Assembly: GCA_964510585.1 (NCBI GenBank)
Contig: CAZECW010000027.1
Coordinates: 1-32,000, forward strand
From: an uncultured archaeon
GTDB lineage: Archaea > Asgardarchaeota > Jordiarchaeia > Jordiarchaeales > Jordiarchaeaceae
Direction of reading: 5' to 3'
Length of the DNA: 32,000 nucleotides
How positions within the stretch are numbered: the stretch's first letter is position 1; every line of letters begins with the position of its first letter. Below are positions 858 through 25,246 of this stretch, piece after piece. A program made the translations under genes and the position numbers. The notes beneath the pieces are model-generated. The model saw only the letters and a list, made by a program, of their open reading frames with translations, made no database searches and was not told where the DNA came from.

Positions 858-1874
858 ATGGTGTATGGACTGTACATATTTGATGAGAATGGAAACAATG
901 TTTTCGAGAGGTTCTATGGAAAAATTAATTTGCATCCAGAAATCCTGCTCAGTTTTTGCAAAGAAATTACAAAATTTGTGCAAAACATAGATCAGAGCAA
1001 AAGAATCGGCCTTTTTAATATTGAGAAGTTGACTTTTATCTACTCGCTTTCCCAAGACATCTCCTTGGTGTTATGCTCCGACCAAAAGGAAGATGAAATG
1101 TACCTCATAAACAAACTAGTCAAAGTGCAAGAGGAAGCCCACAAAATCTTAAAACAAAAAACAGCAATGACAACCCAGACAGCAGAAGAAACAACAAAAA
1201 CAGAGGGAATAATGGAAACAGAATCAACTATGGAAACTGAAGAAGCAGTGGGACCTATAGAAACTATGGAAACAGAAACTAAGGAAGGGGTGGATGGGAA
1301 AGTTGAGGAAAGTCCTTTAAAGAATTTTGAGCAGGTTGTAGATGAGATTCTGTTTCCCTTCCTCAAAATAGCTATTCTCGGTTCAGGCGGGGTTGGGAAG
1401 AGTTCAGTGTTGAAACTGGTTTTAGGTGACGAGCCGGATGCCAACTATATTCCCACAGTGGGTGTGGATATTAAAGAGTTTGATTTTGAAGTAAAGAGTA
1501 TGAAGCTCGTTTTTTGGGACTTTTCGGGCCAGCCCCATTTCAGAAAACTGTGGCAACCGTTTCTTGAGGAAGCCGATTTGGTCATAGTGGTAAGCAACTC
1601 AACGGTTGAGAACCTGGTTGAAACTAAATCTATAATACAATTAATAAATGCGGAGAAACCAGACGCATGCATTGTACTAATAGCCAACAAGCAAGATTTA
1701 CCAGAGGCAATTCCTCCCGAAACAATCGAAAAATATATGGGAATGCCTGTACATGGACTGGTCGCAATAGACCCAAACCAGAGGGAAAAACTTTTGGAAA
1801 TCCTCAAAGAGGCAATCTTAGAACTCATCGAAAAAAGATCTCAAAAAACCTCTCTGGCAGAAATTAACACATAG
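858..1874 (+). CDS. Longin-like domain fused to Arf-like small GTPase (paralog 1), with acidic Thr/Glu-rich insertion
   Basis: ORF 843..1874; ATG at 858 follows AGGTGAGGG. GTPase motifs: G1 GSGGVGKS, G2 PTVG, G3 WDFSGQ (+RKLW, Arf-like), G4 NKQDLP. N-terminus VYGLYIFDENGNNVFERFY resembles the first beta-hairpin of longin domains. Confidence 0.85.
   Translation: MVYGLYIFDENGNNVFERFYGKINLHPEILLSFCKEITKFVQNIDQSKRIGLFNIEKLTFIYSLSQDISLVLCSDQKEDEMYLINKLVKVQEEAHKILKQKTAMTTQTAEETTKTEGIMETESTMETEEAVGPIETMETETKEGVDGKVEESPLKNFEQVVDEILFPFLKIAILGSGGVGKSSVLKLVLGDEPDANYIPTVGVDIKEFDFEVKSMKLVFWDFSGQPHFRKLWQPFLEEADLVIVVSNSTVENLVETKSIIQLINAEKPDACIVLIANKQDLPEAIPPETIEKYMGMPVHGLVAIDPNQREKLLEILKEAILELIEKRSQKTSLAEINT
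1212..1277 (+). repeat. In-frame imperfect repeat ATGGAAAC(A/T)GAA (METE) x3
   Basis: Copies start at 1212, 1230 and 1266, all in frame, inside the low-complexity segment. Confidence 0.7.
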
Positions 1875-2363
1875 GTTCAACCAGCAATGCAATCACAAAT
1901 GAAACAACAGATACCGAAAAATTTTGGAACCCCTACAATTTTTAAGGAATTTATTCAGACCCCACACTAACCCCTATTCACCTCAAACAAAATATTACGA
2001 TTATGCCTTTGGTTCAAATAACAGGATAAAGCAAGCATGGCTCTCTGCCTTTCTTTGGGAAATTTTTTGGCAGTGTTGCGTCTTCACCTTCTTGGATTTA
2101 TCTTTTCTAAATTTTATCTCCACATTCCGTGCTAGCTTCTCGAGTGGGTTGCACTACATGTAGTTTTCGTGATGGTTTTTGAAGCTTACAGATTTGTTGG
2201 ATTTCCATAGACTCATCTATAGTTTCAAAATTGGAGCACGAACCAAGTTGGTGAAATGGGGTTCTTTAGAGAATTTGGAGTATTGGACAAAAAAGCATAT
2301 TTGTTTAGAACGCATTTTTTTAGGTAAAGAACCCTTAGGTTGCATAAGGTGAGGGTTAACTTT

Positions 2364-3467
2364 ATGGAAGAGCTAATTTCGTTTTTGTCGGATCAGCGGG
2401 TGTGGCTTCTTATTGATCGGTTATTGGCTGAGCCGGATTTGGAGTTTTTTCCCCAATTTTCGCATTCAACCACCCTGGGATTTAGGTATCCTGAAGCGGA
2501 GAAAATTCTGGCAATGAACAGTTTGGAAGCCTTCGAAATTCTGAACCGCTTAACCTCTCTCAATGTTCTCTCTAAAAATGTTGAGGACACAATACTTACC
2601 TGTCCCGAGTGCAGGAATTACGACATCCATTTAAGGCTTACCTGTCCAAAGTGTGGGAGTGGTAACACTAGTCGCGAAACGGTGGTGGAGCATTTCGAGT
2701 GTGGACTCATCGATCTAAAGGAAAAGTTTGGAAAACACACTATGCTTCTTTGCCCGAAGTGCAAAAAGAAGCTGCGGTCTGAAGGCGAAGACTATAACGT
2801 TACTGTAACCAATATGTGTCACTCATGCGGGGCACTATTTTCTCAGCCTGCGGCGCGGATGCACTGTTTTAATTGCGATTCAGAATTTAAAGTCGACGAA
2901 GCTCAGAGACAGGAGGTCTACTCCTTCAGGTTCAATAAAGGAATTCGCCCCAGCATAATAAATCTATTAGCTTACCGACCAATGCTGACAGAAATTAAAC
3001 CCTCCAGGAAGAGAAAAGTTGAATTAGACCCCCTTAACGTTCACCTAATTAACGTTCTTCAAAAGGATGGACGGGCATCATTCCGGGAAATAAGCAGAAA
3101 ATTGAAAGTCAGCGACGCGACCATCAGAGACCGCGTTAACAAGCTTCTCAAAAGCGGAGTAATAGAGGAAATCACCGCCATCGTGAACCCACAAAAAGTG
3201 GGAAAAGAAGAAATATCCTTCATCATCCTAGAGATTGAACCCTCAGAACTAACAAAGGTTTTATCCAAACTAAAAGACATACCTGAAATAAAATTCGTCT
3301 GCGAAACCGCAGGCAAAGAAAACGCCCTCATTATGGTCTTCTCAGAAAACAGAGAAACACTAAAAGAACTCATCGACCAAAAAATCAGCGCACTACCAGC
3401 AACAAAAATAACACAAATCCTAAGTGTCACAAACTTCCAGAAAAAGGATTTAAAAGTAACACTTTAG
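2364..3467 (+). CDS. Lrp/AsnC-family regulator with N-terminal multi-zinc-ribbon (TackOD1-like) domain
   Basis: ORF 2340..3467; ATG at 2364 follows AGGTGAGGG. Cys motifs CPEC, CPKC, EHFECG, CPKC, CHSC, CFNC. C-terminal LDPLNVHLINVLQKDGRASFREISRKLKVSDATIRDRVNKL...GVI is a classic AsnC HTH, followed by a RAM-like ligand domain. Confidence 0.85.
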   Translation: MEELISFLSDQRVWLLIDRLLAEPDLEFFPQFSHSTTLGFRYPEAEKILAMNSLEAFEILNRLTSLNVLSKNVEDTILTCPECRNYDIHLRLTCPKCGSGNTSRETVVEHFECGLIDLKEKFGKHTMLLCPKCKKKLRSEGEDYNVTVTNMCHSCGALFSQPAARMHCFNCDSEFKVDEAQRQEVYSFRFNKGIRPSIINLLAYRPMLTEIKPSRKRKVELDPLNVHLINVLQKDGRASFREISRKLKVSDATIRDRVNKLLKSGVIEEITAIVNPQKVGKEEISFIILEIEPSELTKVLSKLKDIPEIKFVCETAGKENALIMVFSENRETLKELIDQKISALPATKITQILSVTNFQKKDLKVTL

Positions 3468-3894
3468 CAATAACCCATTATTGCCCCCAGCCAGCATCAC
3501 TTTCCAACAATTAGACTTGTGTCTGAAAAATTTTCCAAATAAACTAAAATTGCAAAAAATTCGCCAAAACACATCAAAGGTAATAGCTCCTAAAATATAG
3601 ATTTTTGTGGCCAGCTCTCCTATCTTCTCTTATGAATAATATCTGGATGTTATTCCAACCAAGCAAAGAGCTTTGCTCAAATATTTTGAAGGAAAGGGGA
3701 TGGAGGAGAATGAGTTTACTACCCCCGATGTGCGCATAAAGGAAACCAAAAGAACATGAAAACTATGGAAATACCTGCCTTACTGCATAATTCTATTTTT
3801 TCAATTCGTTTGCCTTTTTAGATGAATTTTTGCAATTACGCGATGCTGAAAAATTTTCGGAACAACAAATAAAATCGCCAGAAAAAGCAAAATT

Positions 3895-4812
3895 ATGAAA
3901 CAGGAGAGGGATGCCACAAACTTTTTATCCATGGGCGAAAAGTTTTTACTCATGTCACGCCCATCTTTTCTTAACGTTGGTTTTGATCAGAACGGTCAAT
4001 TCATTCCCCTAACCTATGAACACATAAGCACCACACTGGACAATGTGAAATTCGACAAGGACTGGGGAACATTAACAATATCCGATGTTCGTATCGTTTG
4101 GTACAAAAAGAGAAGTGTTGGAAAAGCAATCCTCAAAGGAGCTCTAGCAGCAGCCGCCGTTGGTATCGCTAGTGGGGTGGCCGGAGAAATTGTGGGAAGA
4201 AATGTAGGCGGCTTGGCTGGCCACATCGCTCGAAGGGCCATAACTGGCGCTGGCTTTGCAATTGGTTCTGGAATGATTCTCGGTGCTATGACTGGAAATG
4301 ACTTTATGAATATTGGTCGGGACGGCAAACTCGAATCTCTAGCGATTCCCCTAGCTTCGGTTAAAGACGTTCAATCCGACAGTAAGGGCCTAACCATAAT
4401 TCTGGAAAGCGGCGACTCTATGCGTTTCGAAGTAAAGAACTTAAAAGCTTTACCAGCAATCAAGACGACAATAAAAGCAAAAAAAGACGAAGGAAAATGC
4501 CCATACTGTGGAGCAGTAATCCCTCCAGGTAACACTTCCTGCCAATCCTGCGGAGCCCCAGTTAGAGCATCCACAGTGCCTCCGGGCACTGCAAGAACCC
4601 AATCTGCCTTCGGCTCACAAATCGGTGCACAAGGCCCCGCATCCCAAACAATGCAAACAACAAGATGCCCCTCATGCGGTAAACAAGTACCATTGGCAAA
4701 ATTTTGTTTTGAGTGCGGTTCCCCAATAGGACAAGTGTGCCCTAACTGCGGGCAAGCAATTCCATCAAACATGTCTGGTAAATTCTGTCCACACTGTGGC
4801 GGTAAGTTATAG
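3895..4812 (+). CDS. PH/GRAM-like domain with Gly/Ala-rich (glycine-zipper-like) insertion and C-terminal zinc ribbons
   Basis: WGTLTISDVRIVWYKK and IPLASVKDV...LTIILESGDSMRF resemble PH-like strands, separated by ~55 Gly/Ala-rich residues. Six CxxC motifs in the C-terminal third. Start could instead be the second Met (MGEK). Confidence 0.7.
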   Translation: MKQERDATNFLSMGEKFLLMSRPSFLNVGFDQNGQFIPLTYEHISTTLDNVKFDKDWGTLTISDVRIVWYKKRSVGKAILKGALAAAAVGIASGVAGEIVGRNVGGLAGHIARRAITGAGFAIGSGMILGAMTGNDFMNIGRDGKLESLAIPLASVKDVQSDSKGLTIILESGDSMRFEVKNLKALPAIKTTIKAKKDEGKCPYCGAVIPPGNTSCQSCGAPVRASTVPPGTARTQSAFGSQIGAQGPASQTMQTTRCPSCGKQVPLAKFCFECGSPIGQVCPNCGQAIPSNMSGKFCPHCGGKL

Positions 4813-5425
4813 TTCTTAAAAGCTTCAATGCAAGTGAGTCATCCCGTAGGTAGTATTCCCAATTTTATTCCTAGTTTGTGACAGTAGCCTCCAGGCGGTT
4901 CCAGGACATTTTAGCCACTAGAGCTAGGCACAGGTAGATGGGTGCGAAGCCGTAGTTGTTTTGGAACGTGACTTCCGTAGAATTAAGCATCTCACTTTTT
5001 TGCGTTGGGGGCGTTCGATCCAAACAATTATTTCTTTGTAAAATTAGAAATCTTGCAAGTACAGAAGGCTCTCTCCGTATCAAACAGCTTTTTATCAACT
5101 CGTGACAGTCTTCAAAAAGATTTATAAGTACTCAATATTTTTCTGAATTCCCTTTTTCTTTTGTGATTCTGGGCTTAATGCGCTGTTGAAATGTAAAATA
5201 ATTTGCGGGTTGCGTGGCTTAGACTCACTTTTTTTGGCAAAATAAGTATTGCGTTTTTTCTTGTATTTGCTTTTTAGGTTTTTTGCCAGCTTTTGCGGGT
5301 TTTAAGCATATTAAATCTGTGATTAGTTAGTGACCAGGCGATTCTTGCAACCTCCCGAATCGATTTAATTCAATAAGCGAGGACGAGCTAATGAGAACCA
5401 GTTTCCCTGTTGAAGGTGGAAAGAG

Positions 5426-6277
5426 GTGGGTAAAGTTAAAGCTTTAGTTGCCGGTGAGAATAAGGAAGTTTTCCGGGAGGAATCCCCTGATACCATCGAA
5501 GCGAAGTTGATGGGATGCGTAGCCAAAATTAGGAACGAATTGGTTCAGGGTATAACTATGAAGTTTCCTATTAAGGGCTTAGAAATGGTTGTTGGACAGG
5601 TATTTGATGGTGCTATAGAGAAACATTTTGACTCCCTCCTGAAAATTTTGGATTTAAAGCATTCACCATTAAAGGATAATTCTTCGAAGGTAGAGTCTTC
5701 GAAGTCTAGAATTTTTGATTCTCGCGGTTATGTTTACTCTCAGTCGAAGGTTAAGGTAAGTGATGCGGTTAAACGTTCTGAGGAAAATGTAAACTTATCA
5801 CTGGACACCCGTGTCCAAACTGGTGCTGAGACAGTTGGAAAAATAGATGAGAGAGTGATTAGTGAATACCAGAAAAGAATAGATGAATTAATGTTGGGAA
5901 TAAAAGCTAGAGATAGCAAAATATTGGGGCTCAAAAGGGAGATAGAAAAGCTTCAAAAATCATTAGAGCTCTTACAGGCACAAGCGTCTTCTCCATTTAT
6001 TTATTCTGCATCTCCCAACCAGGAAGAGGCGATACATATTCAGAATCAGTTGAGAAGTATGATGGAATTTATGAGAAGAATCACCCCTATTCTAAATAAG
6101 GATCCCAAATACAAGATAATGTTCTTCCTGAAACGTGTGGGCAAAGCCCCGGCTAGTAAACTCGGCGAAGAACTGGGCATACCTCCAAAGGAATTAGACT
6201 CACTCATCAAAGAACTTGAAACTATGAAAATAATAAGAAAAGAAGAGGAAACCGTTTTCCTCACTGATGTCCATTGA
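5426..6277 (+). CDS. Hypothetical protein: central coiled coil plus C-terminal winged-helix domain
   Basis: 283-aa ORF. Heptad-like YQKRIDELMLGIKARDSKILGLKREIEKLQKSLELLQ; wHTH-like DPKYKIMFFLKRVGKAPASKLGEELGIPPKELDSLIKELETMKII. Ends 57 nt upstream of the next gene. Confidence 0.7.
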   Translation: MGKVKALVAGENKEVFREESPDTIEAKLMGCVAKIRNELVQGITMKFPIKGLEMVVGQVFDGAIEKHFDSLLKILDLKHSPLKDNSSKVESSKSRIFDSRGYVYSQSKVKVSDAVKRSEENVNLSLDTRVQTGAETVGKIDERVISEYQKRIDELMLGIKARDSKILGLKREIEKLQKSLELLQAQASSPFIYSASPNQEEAIHIQNQLRSMMEFMRRITPILNKDPKYKIMFFLKRVGKAPASKLGEELGIPPKELDSLIKELETMKIIRKEEETVFLTDVH

Positions 6278-6334
6278 ATAAACTAGTAGTTAAAGAATTA
6301 GAAACAATCCATCTTCTCCCAACTAAAAAAGGTT

Positions 6335-7249
6335 ATGAAGGCGAAGAAATTGATATATGGACTATTCATATTTGATAGGGTTGGAAAAAGCCTTTACCAA
6401 AAGTTTTATGGAAAAATTAACTTAGACCGCGAACTCCTAACCCGTTTCGTAAGGGAGTTTATAGTTTTCATTCTAAATTTTGACCAAAGCGATAGGGTGG
6501 AATGCCTAAACCTTGAAAACATGAAATTAGTTTACTCCATAATTAAAAACACGGTTTCCGCAATTTCCACGGATCAAAAAGAAGACGAAATGTATCTAAT
6601 GGACAAACTCATCAAAATACATGAACAATTCATTAAAATTTACGAGAACCCCTCCAAAGAGGAAGCAGAAGAAAAAGAAAAGGTAAATGCGCCGACAATC
6701 GAGGAAAACCCATTAATGAATTTTGAGAAGACAGTGGATGCGATCCTGTTTCCCTTTCTAAAAGTAGCTATCCTCGGTTCAAGTGGAGTTGGAAAAACCT
6801 CGGTGATGAAACTAATTGTGGGCGACGAGACGGACACAACATACACTCCCACAGTAGGTGTAGACATTAAAGAGTTTGACATGGACTTCAAAAATATGAA
6901 ACTCATTTTTTGGGACTTCTCAGGCCAACCACATTTCAGAAAACTGTGGCAACCCTTCCTCGAGGGAACTGACATCGTCATACTCGTAACCGATTCCAAA
7001 ACCGAAAACCTAGCGGAAACCAGAGCAATACTACAACTAGTTAAGAGGGAAAAGCCAGACGCAAACATCCTATTAATAGCAAATAAGCAGGACTTACCCA
7101 ACGCAAACCCCCCAGAAACAATAGAAAAGTACATGGGAATAAAGGCATATGGAATTGTGGCAATCGACACAAAATACAGAGAAAAAGTAATAAAAGCACT
7201 CAAAGAGACGATAACGGGACGCATAGAACCCCAACCTCAACAAACCTAA
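6335..7249 (+). CDS. Longin-like domain fused to Arf-like small GTPase (paralog 2)
   Basis: G1 GSSGVGKT, G2 PTVG, G3 WDFSGQ, G4 NKQDLP. N-terminus IYGLFIFDRVGKSLYQKFY. Aligns end to end with 858..1874 apart from a shorter acidic insertion. Confidence 0.85.
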   Translation: MKAKKLIYGLFIFDRVGKSLYQKFYGKINLDRELLTRFVREFIVFILNFDQSDRVECLNLENMKLVYSIIKNTVSAISTDQKEDEMYLMDKLIKIHEQFIKIYENPSKEEAEEKEKVNAPTIEENPLMNFEKTVDAILFPFLKVAILGSSGVGKTSVMKLIVGDETDTTYTPTVGVDIKEFDMDFKNMKLIFWDFSGQPHFRKLWQPFLEGTDIVILVTDSKTENLAETRAILQLVKREKPDANILLIANKQDLPNANPPETIEKYMGIKAYGIVAIDTKYREKVIKALKETITGRIEPQPQQT

Positions 7250-7490
7250 TAACAAGAATTACCACATAAATCCTACTATAATACTAATTTTCCCCTCTTT
7301 TAGAAATAGGTGTAGTGCGGTTTTTAAATTAGTTCGCCCAAATTAACATTGTAAATTTTCAAATAATCTTTAAGCCCCATTTAACAAATTTTAAATATCC
7401 CATGGAACATTTTTGGGGCAGAGTTCAACAATATTCAGCGCAAAAAGTGGAGTGGGATAGGGGATGATTTCTAATTGGGATGCTGCCTTT

Positions 7491-8921
7491 TTAGAGGATG
7501 CTCCTTAGTGATACTTCGTTGTTTCCGTTCACGTTTTCGATAACCAAGGCATACATTTCCGTTGGGGGAAACTCGCCGTATATTACTGTTGTCCCTATGC
7601 GTTCCATAACGAAATTGGTTGATGATAGGTGCCTTAAACTGTCTATGCATTGAATGCCTTGCCTTGCCATTGCTAAGATTATTCCCTTCATGTAGCCAGT
7701 TTCAAGAACTATTGCCCCTATATTTCTTCGGAGAGCTTCTTCTCCGAAAATTCTCTCCAAAGTGTCTACTCCAAGGAGCCATAGGAATGTTTCAGCACCC
7801 AGCCGCTTGGTGACCTCAGTTACCGCATTACGGAAATCCAAAATAAACTCTTGTATGTTATCCTTTGAAACACTAATCTCGTTAAGTTCACTTTCTGCCT
7901 CTTCTGTCAATACTAAAAAATGAAGATACTTTCTAATCAGCGAGAGAATCTTCTCATCATTTCCTAATCCCACTGTAGATGATAAGTATTCCATAGCTAA
8001 TTTGGTTGTAGCGGTTTGTGGTAAATTTATAAAAGCGGGTATTTCCTGCCGAATAAAACTTAATACAATTGGCCATAGGAAGTAAACGTATTCTGTTCCT
8101 ATGCCTTTTGCCACTTCAAGGAGGTTAAGTGTACTCTTCCTCAACCCCCCATTCAAAATTTTATCCAGCTCTTGAATGCTTGTGGAGATAAACATACTCT
8201 CTCCTGATTTTTCAAGTTTTGGAGGAGCATATTTAATGTGGGGAAAGTTTATTGGTTCGAAGATGGTGAATCTTCCATTTTTGAGGGAGAAAAGATAGAA
8301 TGGCTGTTTTATCTCCCCACCACGTAGCTTTTCCAGATACAGTTTCCTAACAAGCCTATCCTTCACTATTCCCCTTTCCAGTCTAACCACTGCATCAGTT
8401 AAATAGTCGAGTCTCTGGTTCTCACTTGCCTCCGATACGAAGATCATGTTTGTGTTTGTCTTCGCTCCCAATTCCAACAGAATGCTTTCAAGCGTGGTGT
8501 CACCAAGGGGAATGTTCATGTTTGTTTTAATAGCATCCAAACTGTCAATAATGACTGTTACGGGCCGCTTCTCCGACTGTTGGATCCTATCATTTATCGA
8601 CCTTAAAAATTCTGGCTGCTCAGTATACTCAAATATTGCACTCCTGGGAAGATCAGAGGACAAATAGGAGCGCCTAGCATCCAGAATGTTCCGCTCATTC
8701 AGGCATTCACCTATCCAGGGAAACTGATCCAAAAGTCTATCAGGAGAAACCCGCGAAGAAAGATAGATAACAGTCTTATCCCCAGTGGAAATACCCTTAA
8801 CCATCTCTAAAGCCAAAGTAGTCTTACCCGAACCAGGAGCCCCCTTAATATGAACAGAATATCTTCCCTTCTCCAAAAGACCTATAAGCTCAGCCGGAAC
8901 ATTCCTTTCAACACTCAGCAT
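7491..8921 (-). CDS. GvpD-like / KaiC-RAD55 superfamily ATPase with two RecA-like domains
   Basis: ORF 7491..8936; likely ATG at 8921. Walker A GAPGSGKT, YLSSRVSPDRLLDQFPW, Walker B VIIDS, LDYLTDAVV, LEKLRG. Second domain starts ISTSIQELDKILNGGL with a degenerate P-loop (EVAKGIGTE). Confidence 0.8.
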   Translation of the reverse strand: MLSVERNVPAELIGLLEKGRYSVHIKGAPGSGKTTLALEMVKGISTGDKTVIYLSSRVSPDRLLDQFPWIGECLNERNILDARRSYLSSDLPRSAIFEYTEQPEFLRSINDRIQQSEKRPVTVIIDSLDAIKTNMNIPLGDTTLESILLELGAKTNTNMIFVSEASENQRLDYLTDAVVRLERGIVKDRLVRKLYLEKLRGGEIKQPFYLFSLKNGRFTIFEPINFPHIKYAPPKLEKSGESMFISTSIQELDKILNGGLRKSTLNLLEVAKGIGTEYVYFLWPIVLSFIRQEIPAFINLPQTATTKLAMEYLSSTVGLGNDEKILSLIRKYLHFLVLTEEAESELNEISVSKDNIQEFILDFRNAVTEVTKRLGAETFLWLLGVDTLERIFGEEALRRNIGAIVLETGYMKGIILAMARQGIQCIDSLRHLSSTNFVMERIGTTVIYGEFPPTEMYALVIENVNGNNEVSLRSIL

Positions 8922-9187
8922 CGTTCCCACCCACACTTCTCAAAAAATATAAACATTCCTAAATTAAAAATACACACCCTTTTTTAAAAACATTATTGGT
9001 TAAGGAAGCATACCCCACACTCAAAAACCAAAAAAGAAAACATCAACGAAAAATAAATAATAGAAAACCATACTAACCACACAAATTATTTAAATAAAAA
9101 CAAGAACTCTACATAGTTATTACCCCATGGCAAATCCCCCTTTTTTTTCCCGCCTCATTCCACAGAATTTCTTGGTAACATTACAAC

Positions 9188-22381: not shown

Positions 22382-25246
22382 TTATTTTACTCGCCTTTTA
22401 TCTAATTGTTCGATGAGGTTCATAAGTTCTTTCTTAAGTTTTTCTTTGCGTTTTAATTCTTTAGCGGTTATTACTCCCCCCTGTTCTTTTCTCTGCAATT
22501 CGTCGATTTGCATGCGGATTTCAATGAATCTGTCCCTTATGGTTTCTATCCCCTCTTTGTCTTGTGAGATCTCCCACATGGATTCTATGGTGTAGGGTAC
22601 CTTGCTTAGAATTATGCTTGTTCGGATATAATCCATTTGAATCTTGTCATATCTGGGTTCTATCTGAGATTTTCTGGCTTGAAAATCCATTTCACTAATT
22701 TTTCCTTCGCGATATTCCTGGTTCAGTTTCTGCAACTTTAAGCCCAGATTGTTGAGTTCCTCTTGGAGCTTCTCCCGTTCCCTAAGCAGTTTCACAATTT
22801 TCTTTCTCTGAAGTGTCTCTACCTTATCCAAATCAATCAAGGAAGACAATATCTCCAATAGAGAAGCCTTTAATGTTGAAACTTCACCCTTCCAATTTAC
22901 AAGCTTTTCCCAGTTTTGCTCCTCAGCGCTAGACACAAATTCACGTAGCCTTTTTCTAATCCATTTCTCTTCTTCCACAGTGACACCACTGGTGATACAG
23001 GTTGCGGTCAGTATATTTCCATCCTCCCGAATAAAGGTGCCGAACTCCGTCTCCAACTTTCTCAGACCGCCCTTCTTCATCTCGGCAAGGAAAGTCTTAA
23101 CCGCTGACATAAAGCCCGAAACCAAAGTCGCATCCTGTTCCATCTTGAAAAAGTCAAAAGCCCACACAGTAACACCACTTGGAATGTAGTCAACAATAAT
23201 GTTCTCAAGACTAGCCATAGCCCTCAACGGAACCATGCGTCTCCTATGTACTCTACTAGCCACCATTCCCCCCACAGCCGCCAATCCCACAACAACTCCT
23301 AAAGCGAGGTAACGTGTAATTTTCTGATTTTGCTCAGATAACATATTAGACACTAACAGGATTAAACCAGTTACCTCGGGATTAATAACCACGTAATATG
23401 GAGCCTTAAAGTTAATGGTAACAGTACCAGAAACACTCGACGCATAAAATCTTACGCCACTAGCTACGAAACGAATTTCGTGAACTCCAAAATCTGTGCC
23501 AAAATCCACAATGAAACTATAAGTACCGTTCCCATAATCCGTTTTATTATAAATAGGTAAAACCTTCGCACCCTCATAGGCCATTATTGCAGCACCAGCC
23601 AACCCCTCCCCTGTTACATTATCATAGTAGAAAAGAGTTATTGGGACAGTATTAGGATACTCAACATGTTCAGGAAAACTAGTCACAACCAAGCCAGTAG
23701 CAATTAGAGGCACAATTTCCAGAACAGTTTCATTATATCCCACTGATAATCCATCCCTAAAACTAATCGTCACATTAAACATTCCGTGGGTGGTGGCTGT
23801 ACTTCTCACATTCCAACTAAACACCACACTAGGAACACCCGACAAAGCCTTCGTATTTGTATAATTCAACCTTTGAGATGAATCATAAATATCCAGAGTC
23901 ACACTTCCACTAACAGAAGCATCAAAGCTCACAGCGATCTCAAGAAAATCATCCAGGGTGGCGTTTTCAACAGGAACCCCACCAACCATAAAACCTATGC
24001 CGGAAAGATAATTGGGAGCCGTGCAGTTAACAGTCCAAGTACCATTACCAGCAACAAAACTAATAGCATCGGGAGGGTGAGAGTCCAATGCAACCCAATT
24101 GGCACCATCAAAAGCCATCGAGCTCGAATCACCCCAGTCTGAAGGAATACCCGTAATGTTAATATGATTAACACCAGTGCCAGTCATAGGGAAGGCGTTT
24201 TCAGCATCGATGGTAACATTCCAAAAAGCGTCACTATTATTATAAACAACAAAATTAGTTGTAGCAGTGAAATTCCTGGCGTAGGTTACGTTCCAAACAT
24301 AAGAAAAACTAACAGGGGCCCACCATGTAGAAGCTACATCATAAAAGATATATCCCGTTGAAACAGGTGTTTCGCTACCGCTAATCCAGTTTCCATTACC
24401 CCTACTGGCGTCTAAAACAGTTGAACCATTAATAGTTAAACCCACTTCTGATGGAAGAAAAATATTACTAACATTTACTTTCAGCTTAAAATCAACATTC
24501 AACGGTGACCAGGTTCCAGACTGGTATTCGTATGCGTATCCTCCACTAGACGGTGAGACTTGTTTCCAGTAAAACTTGGAGGAGTCTATGTTTTCAATAC
24601 CGATGAAAAACGTGTTATCAAATGTAGTGGAAGTGTCAAGGAATTGATGGCCAAAATCCACATCAAACCAAATGGGGTTACCAGAGGGTATAGAAATGGT
24701 TGAAACATTTTTAATTAAATTATTCGGTACGGGCACTCCACCGCTGTTAATTGCATTGTAGACATAAAAGTGACCGATGCTTCCCCCACCGGGCGACCTT
24801 AACTCAACACTAACATTATCCAGGTAGGCGTTACTCGTCAATCTAAATGACATGGCAAGAAGGCTAATTTTTGTGTCGCCGTTGTACGGGTTAGGATTTG
24901 GTTCAATTGTAGTATTTGGTGCATTAATACCAGTGAGTGTTAGGTTTGCCCAGATGATTTTCCAACCGCTGGGACAGGGAACATAAATATCTGAAGAAGT
25001 GTTCGTGTAATTTGGCACATTATCATAATTGTTTGTAATATACAATAAAGCATTTAATTGATCTCCGCTGCCCGTGTATGATTTTGTCATGTTGTCCAAG
25101 TTATTCAAGTTTAGGAAGGTGAGGGGCTGATTCGGGCTTAATGTGGCGAGTATAGCGATTGTTGAAATGGCAAAAATCAGAAAGGTTGCTAACGCTACCC
25201 TTTCTTTCAATTTTATCCTCCCAAAGATAGAATTTTTAGTCTTCAT
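22382..25246 (-). CDS. Large receptor-like membrane glycoprotein: ectodomain, TM helix, cytosolic longin-like domain and coiled coil
   Basis: N-terminal signal/anchor VALATFLIFAISTIAILATL. About 600-aa beta-rich region with ~23 N-x-S/T sequons. TM YLALGVVVGLAAVGGMVA-SRVHRRR, then IIVDYIPSGVTVW...DATLVSGFMSAVKTFLAE (longin-like) and charged heptads. Confidence 0.8.
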   Translation of the reverse strand: MKTKNSIFGRIKLKERVALATFLIFAISTIAILATLSPNQPLTFLNLNNLDNMTKSYTGSGDQLNALLYITNNYDNVPNYTNTSSDIYVPCPSGWKIIWANLTLTGINAPNTTIEPNPNPYNGDTKISLLAMSFRLTSNAYLDNVSVELRSPGGGSIGHFYVYNAINSGGVPVPNNLIKNVSTISIPSGNPIWFDVDFGHQFLDTSTTFDNTFFIGIENIDSSKFYWKQVSPSSGGYAYEYQSGTWSPLNVDFKLKVNVSNIFLPSEVGLTINGSTVLDASRGNGNWISGSETPVSTGYIFYDVASTWWAPVSFSYVWNVTYARNFTATTNFVVYNNSDAFWNVTIDAENAFPMTGTGVNHINITGIPSDWGDSSSMAFDGANWVALDSHPPDAISFVAGNGTWTVNCTAPNYLSGIGFMVGGVPVENATLDDFLEIAVSFDASVSGSVTLDIYDSSQRLNYTNTKALSGVPSVVFSWNVRSTATTHGMFNVTISFRDGLSVGYNETVLEIVPLIATGLVVTSFPEHVEYPNTVPITLFYYDNVTGEGLAGAAIMAYEGAKVLPIYNKTDYGNGTYSFIVDFGTDFGVHEIRFVASGVRFYASSVSGTVTINFKAPYYVVINPEVTGLILLVSNMLSEQNQKITRYLALGVVVGLAAVGGMVASRVHRRRMVPLRAMASLENIIVDYIPSGVTVWAFDFFKMEQDATLVSGFMSAVKTFLAEMKKGGLRKLETEFGTFIREDGNILTATCITSGVTVEEEKWIRKRLREFVSSAEEQNWEKLVNWKGEVSTLKASLLEILSSLIDLDKVETLQRKKIVKLLREREKLQEELNNLGLKLQKLNQEYREGKISEMDFQARKSQIEPRYDKIQMDYIRTSIILSKVPYTIESMWEISQDKEGIETIRDRFIEIRMQIDELQRKEQGGVITAKELKRKEKLKKELMNLIEQLDKRRVK

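Follow-up and report, generated by a model that had tools for sequence, protein, structure and literature searches.

The window, the whole stretch of 32,000 nucleotides analysed here, contains two genes in which a longin domain precedes a small GTPase domain, assigned below to the ArfL type. The first, longin–ArfL GTPase paralogue 1, occupies positions 858..1874 of the forward strand, as do all features of both genes, and encodes 338 aa from ATG 858, with an in-frame TTG at 843; its start residue is that of the homologues, and a Jordarchaeum relative is also 338 aa long. The longin core (858..1184, residues 1-109) comprises β1-β2, α1, β3-β5, and α2 and was modelled by AlphaFold with a pLDDT of 83-96 over residues 1-100. 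It is followed by an acidic, Glu/Thr-rich disordered insert between α2 and α3 (1185..1325), the closing helix α3 of the longin (1326..1352; helix 157-165 of the AlphaFold model, part of the longin superpositions), and the G domain (1362..1830), which was assigned from the Pfam models Arf/Roc/Ras, motifs, and trees. The G motifs lie at 1380-1403 (G1), 1452-1463 (G2, with its Thr), 1515-1532 (G3, WDFSGQ with the catalytic Gln kept), 1686-1697 (G4, NKQD), and 1752-1772 (an atypical G5).

Paralogue 2 (6335..7249) starts at ATG 6335 or TTG 6350, the latter being the position that matches the start of the homologues. Its longin domain (6350..6748, from the full-length AlphaFold model) has a shorter acidic insert and ends in the closing helix (6710-6748); the G domain (6755..7225) was delimited by Pfam, the full-length model, and motifs. 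The two paralogues were 45% identical in the longin core and 68% identical in the G domain, and a third longin–ArfL paralogue of the same genome lies on contig C81. Both ORFs are single open frames in which the longin runs directly into the G domain, confirming the fusion in cis described in the initial annotation. The motifs quoted there are present (YGLYIFD, 864-884; LTFIYS, 1029-1046; LVLCSD, 1065-1082; NFEQVVDEIL, 1323-1352), and the pattern recurs in paralogue 2 (6356-6376; closing helix, 6719-6748). The interval it gave for the domain, 858-1330, is longin, but its end truncates the closing helix, which reaches 1352.

Synteny was found in three relatives (window 858-8936; loci L038-L041), in the order longin–ArfL gene, TackOD1-Lrp regulator, coiled-coil/wHTH protein, longin–ArfL gene, and convergent KaiC/GvpD-like ATPase. 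In the complete relative G038, the same neighbours surround three tandem longin–ArfL genes and a GTPase whose C-terminus resembles a roadblock, and the ATPase also follows the third paralogue (C81, L049). A Gly-rich/zinc-ribbon gene in the window (3895-4812) looks like a recent insertion, because none of the three syntenic loci contains it. The upstream 148-aa ORF (390-836) had no counterpart in the syntenic loci.

Fold of the N-terminal domain

The AlphaFold model, built with 73 homologues, showed strands at residues 2-9 and 14-19, a helix at 27-44, strands at 50-55, 58-64, and 68-75, and helices at 80-109 and 157-165. This ββαβββα-α topology, with its N-terminal β-hairpin and a closing helix where a roadblock has its first helix, is that of a longin. 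In Foldseek, the highest ranks went to zeta-COP (E 5e-6) and AP sigma, the two spanning E 5e-6 to 7e-5, and Bet5 came 13th. The full structural search placed VAMP7 (Z 13.4), Sec22 (13.1), a TRAPP subunit (12.8), and synbindin (12.4) at the top, with sigma at Z 11.2-11.7, SRX at Z 9.3-11.0, and the TRAPP subunits as a whole at Z 10.5-12.8; the leading VAMP7, Sec22, TRAPPC2, and synbindin lay within about 1 Z unit of each other. Longins superposed on model residues 1-171, closing helix included, whereas roadblocks superposed only on residues 1-103. The best PDB matches of the family profile were nearly all longins (AP-2 sigma, E 2e-4), which, together with the fold scores (E 5e-6, Z 13.4), argues that the longin match is not due to chance. 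Matches to Omega_Repress, QacR, and Pumilio were dismissed as helix matches. As modelled, the domain is thus the longin that the initial annotation had proposed and not a roadblock, and no eukaryotic subfamily stands out.

The annotation had gone further and likened the domain to longins of the Bet5/AP-sigma type, which proved too specific. Bet5 appeared in the profile search at E 0.2, and Bet5-type structural scores were no better than those of VAMP7 or Sec22. The Bet5 family model Sybindin (PF04099) matched none of 30 close members and two of 39 distant ones. Specificity for Bet5 is therefore unsupported, and the longin is generic. AP sigma subunits ranked first with a profile of the close clade (E 0.003), and PF01217 matched 29 of 30 domains of the Freyarchaeia clade as against three of 39 from other Asgard lineages, whose orthologues matched Fuz/Mon1 (16) and SNARE longin (11) models. 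The window proteins themselves, in which the domain is fused to a GTPase, reached 18.5-21.1 bits on PF01217, under the Pfam cut-off of 22.5; the longin of paralogue 2 matched Clat_adaptor_s at E 3e-4, under the cut-off. As judged from these comparisons, the sigma-adaptin likeness is restricted to the paralogues of Freyarchaeia and is a lineage effect, which corrects its reading as a type.

Affiliation of the G domain and spread of the fusion

The second correction concerns the G domain, which the initial annotation had called Arf-like. It is a small GTPase, but its clade is ArfL, without direct relation to Arf or SRβ. The G domains of the window proteins scored 70-80 bits with the Arf HMM, as against 120-163 bits for the ArfR-type proteins of other Asgard genomes, a set defined by this high score in which many members have a free N-terminal helix. 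In trees built from non-eukaryotic sequences, the window proteins grouped with longin-GTPases of Loki, Odin, and Thor and with the stand-alone ArfL C73 (support of 97 in the quick tree and 90/92 in the careful tree), separate from ArfR, RasL, and MglA, and a Rag-like protein adjoined ArfL. Forcing the Freyarchaeia proteins to the ArfR-type side was rejected (AU p=0.004). Because C73 is encoded in the same genome, an ArfL G domain can do without a longin in cis.

The G2-to-G3 distance was 21 in longin–ArfL, 19 in Arf6 and ArfR, and 23 in Rab35, and G3 was DxSGQ or DxAGQ rather than DxGGQ (WDFSGQ in 41 of 41 members of the close clade). Switch II keeps GQxxxRxLW in the Arf register. The Arf-family traits of a free N-terminal amphipathic helix, Gly2, and a short interswitch with DxGGQ were absent. 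The Rag/Gtr family was not indicated either, as the model had no C-terminal domain and PF04670 gave 17-30 bits, well under Arf/Roc/Ras. Klinger 2016 is reportedly among the sources of the ArfL group.

Published work describes ArfL as exclusively Asgard and without direct relation to the Arf family (Vargová et al., bioRxiv 10.1101/2024.02.28.582541) and places it near Rag, outside the Arf clade (Zhu 2025, PMC11914678). Among the rows listed of Table S3 of Vargová et al., TKJ18978.1 and TFG24099.1 are labelled ArfL by tree, and no accession of a close homologue occurs in these rows, which precede most of the Jordarchaeia rows. Compared by eye, TKJ18978.1 reads as nearly the same protein as the homologues P0097 and P0107, and it is by this comparison that the published label reaches the window proteins; P0097 aligned end to end with paralogue 1 (E 6e-46) and fell into the same clade in the trees. 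By sequence and phylogeny, then, the G domain is a member of the Asgard-only ArfL group, not of Arf/ArfR/SRβ, and not an Arf ancestor.

We found 259 homologues, and every source that named a taxon was Asgard. The closest named homologues were from Freyarchaeota/Jordarchaeia (57-80% identity for the top matches), and more distant ones were from Loki-, Odin-, Thor-, Hermod-, and Hodarchaea, which assigns the window to an Asgard archaeon. With a whole-protein profile (E ≤ 1e-30), at least 116 of 151 Asgard genomes had a match, the best matches spanning both domains; this count is a lower bound, as 15 candidates were scored in each of the non-matching genomes. The two ORFs are almost certainly Freyarchaeia paralogues of a pan-Asgard longin–ArfL family.

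The architecture itself is common in Asgard archaea and already published, and the window adds two members. In Ca. Prometheoarchaeum syntrophicum MK-D1, 26 of 74 small GTPases are fused to a longin or roadblock, many of them annotated as Arf, and WP_147664152.1, listed there as 'LG', carries the G5 motif of the longin–ArfL family (Tran et al. 2024, PMC10933270). Longin-GTPase fusions were mentioned by Liu et al. (2020) and longin-bearing Asgard Arfs by Zhu (2025, PMC11914678), and close Loki relatives were classed as ArfL (Vargová 2024, bioRxiv 10.1101/2024.02.28.582541). In the genome of the window, 22-30 ORFs are longin-like and small GTPases number about two dozen, one longin–RasL fusion among them. 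Since longins are joined to ArfR-type GTPases in another Asgard genome (L060, L081) and to a RasL-type GTPase in the genome of the window (G000:C118:13150-14166), the fusion appears to have arisen or been reshuffled several times.

The first rank of AP sigma subunits with the close-clade profile and the best PDB sequence matches of the G domain, Arf6 and Arf1, would fit a specific relic of an ancestral pair, AP-sigma/Bet5 with Arf or SRα with SRβ, that eukaryotes later split. This origin is scarcely credible: ArfL falls outside the Arf/ArfR/SRβ clade, so that phylogeny already largely refutes it; the sigma likeness is rare in the other orthologues, which favour Fuz/Mon1 and SNARE longins; and the longin fusions of RasL and ArfR GTPases point to domain shuffling. 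SRα SRX–SRβ, AP sigma/zeta-COP, and TRAPP Bet5-Trs23 have the longin fold in common with the window proteins but are separate chains, and SRβ belongs to the Arf/ArfR clade. Because the G domain belongs to ArfL, the pairing of SRα with SRβ in trans, cited in the initial annotation as the eukaryotic arrangement, is an analogy only; domains of this fold class are also fused in cis in eukaryotes, as in the Rag roadblocks.

Remodelled longins in the Freyarchaeia clade

Two minor local novelties set the Freyarchaeia longins apart: a disordered, acidic segment inserted ahead of the last helix, and an α1 docking face that has been remodelled and carries charges. Residues 107-149 of paralogue 1 had a pLDDT <50 and are disordered, accounting for about 45 of the 158 codons of the interval 858-1330. 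The segment from the conserved Phe of α2 to the Phe of α3 was 20-22 residues long and contained a Trp in 66 of 66 distant members, whereas in the close clade it spanned 25-80 residues (62 in paralogue 1 and 30 in paralogue 2) with 28% Asp/Glu; in other Asgard longins, a short W-x-G loop occupies the place of the insert. In the close clade, Lys/Arg/Glu have replaced the small residues that form a stripe along α1, positions 35/36 being charged in 35 of 41 members as against small in 62-66 of 66 distant members. Because α1 and β3 form the face by which longins dimerise and bind GTPases (PMC3747258), this replacement may mean that the canonical symmetric longin dimer was lost in the Freyarchaeia clade.

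The careful tree left an open fork at this clade. The clade is probably derived, since both the W-x-G loop and the stripe of small residues on α1 persist in most other lineages and in an unrelated longin encoded elsewhere in the window. The latter belongs to a 954-aa protein on the reverse strand (22382-25246) that combines a large region at its N-terminus, a likely membrane helix, and a longin-like domain followed by a coiled coil. The longin-like domain (residues ~681-800) is cytoplasmic and matched profile A4 at E 1e-7, with no Pfam name; the protein is a possible membrane-bound longin partner or sensor.

Relatives also have a separate gene of about 284 aa (G028:C328, G038:C1:2037559, G056:C189, G064:C55, G082:C419), apparently the short-loop type represented by P0120 (P0120-P0122), in which the W-D-G loop is kept and α1 is already partly charged. 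This gene was not found in the 96%-complete assembly of the window.

Candidate role of the longin domain

The spacing from α3 to the Lys of β1 was 12 residues in 107 of 107 family sequences, and two-domain models of Thorarchaeota proteins superposed across both domains (TM 0.72-0.74), which suggests that the joint between the longin and the G domain is fixed. The reading we lean towards makes the longin a module for scaffolding or partner binding, rigidly joined to a soluble, Rag-like switch, rather than a lipid anchor or a proven cis-regulator. The last longin helix passes straight into strand β1 of the G domain through a short joint, and the protein would be a soluble GTP/GDP switch. From the topology, the longin would carry the G domain on its 'bottom' face, the one with two helices, and keep the α1/β3 'top' face free for partners in trans; with α3 on the two-helix side, contact of the attached G domain with the α1 face of the same chain is improbable. 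The longin would then localise or scaffold the protein as the roadblock does in Rag GTPases, where the cis domain scaffolds without setting the nucleotide state (PMC3747258), and nucleotide cycling would depend on outside factors. In Freyarchaeia, the charged top face and the added acidic loop most likely changed the choice of partners among the paralogues. AF2 dimers of MK-D1 longin-GTPases mostly formed through the interface that is usual for longins (PMC10933270 suppl. Fig. 8); our full-length model had a pTM of only 0.66, and the homodimer prediction of paralogue 2 scored 0.28 against a mark of 0.42, a value that argues neither for nor against a dimer.

A built-in regulator, one of two roles offered in the initial annotation, is possible by analogy: longin/roadblock platforms regulate GTPases in TRAPP, Mon1-Ccz1, and MglB (PMC3747258), the fusion is retained across most Asgard families, and the charged longin residues D75, K86, and D130 are nearly invariant in the family. 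Nevertheless, we regard it as rather unlikely that the longin is a GEF-, GAP-, or GDI-like regulator of the G domain fused to it, whether in cis or via a dimer partner. Longins are platforms, not catalysts, and usually require extra subunits (PMC3747258). The GAP longins FLCN, NPRL2, and SMCR8 carry a GP motif in the β1-β2 loop and an arginine finger (PMC12290439), and no GP motif was present in the first 35 residues of any of the 107 family sequences. The invariant short joint would leave no flexible tether to the top face in cis, and stand-alone ArfL exists.

The other role proposed, that the longin replaces the lipid anchor, found no support. Gly2 was absent from all 107 family members, as noted for the window protein at the outset, and a C-terminal Cys occurred in one of 107, so that any membrane link must come from elsewhere. 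The net charge of the longin core was -3 and 0 in the window proteins (family medians -2 and -4), and that of the full proteins -23 and -6. Direct membrane binding is thus very improbable for a protein that lacks a lipidation site and has a neutral to acidic core with no basic surface charge and an acidic α3 that is integral to the longin fold. If the link were indirect, by way of a longin partner in the membrane, it would be covered by the scaffold reading.

α3 also raises the prospect of an Arf-like toggle, in which GTP binding moves the interswitch and detaches α3 from the longin sheet. Residues 121-292 of the model aligned to Arl2 1-191 in 9edr_G (Z 18.9), with α3 where the N-terminal helix of the Arf family sits; switch II is in the Arf register, and the long insert would provide slack for the core to detach or for α3 to be swapped with a paralogue. 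In the Freyarchaeia, α3 would then be an Arf-style N-terminal helix that the nucleotide state and the long acidic insert free from the longin core, letting paralogues exchange helices or uncover another docking groove; if true, this release would be the protein-based equivalent of the membrane switch of Arf. We give it little chance, as the G2-to-G3 distance and G3 differ from those of Arf, α3 was confidently modelled in place (pLDDT about 80-87), and the insert is absent from most of the family.

The scaffold reading finds a likeness in the eukaryotic Rag/Gtr, small GTPases with a longin/roadblock-class domain in cis as scaffold (PMC3747258), although the Rag roadblock is C-terminal and the proteins are obligate heterodimers, whereas the window longin is N-terminal and the G motifs are different. 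The 'LG' fusions of MK-D1, such as WP_147664152.1, share with the window proteins the N-terminal longin, the small GTPase, and the atypical G5 G-M/L/I-x-A-I-D/N-P-x-x-R; the window proteins differ in the acidic insert before α3, the charged α1, DxSGQ, and the presence of three paralogues. The LG class has been called Rag-like with closeness to Arf (Tran 2024, PMC10933270). The signatures VTDS, ANKQDL, and the G-x-V/I-A-I G5 are common to the ArfL group and the window proteins, and Vargová 2024 does not discuss the N-terminal domain. Because PDB sequence and fold searches returned no solved longin–ArfL chain and the literature searched no ArfL biochemistry, this compact family of two-domain proteins lends itself reasonably well to tests of the effect of Asgard longins on GTPases, with the Freyarchaeia paralogues supplying natural variation in docking face and loop.

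Families f5, f18, and f21 had no longin–ArfL match among the 15 candidates scored per genome and have many high-scoring ArfR-type genes, which offers a lead towards complementarity of the two types. At about 25 loci of the distant family that matched best, with Loki-type sequences (L008-L036, L046-L048), the orthologue lies between a phosphoglucomutase-like gene, recognised by eye from motifs, and a divergent helical protein of 190-217 aa with no match in the genome of the window, and a Rab-like GTPase often adjoins the orthologue.
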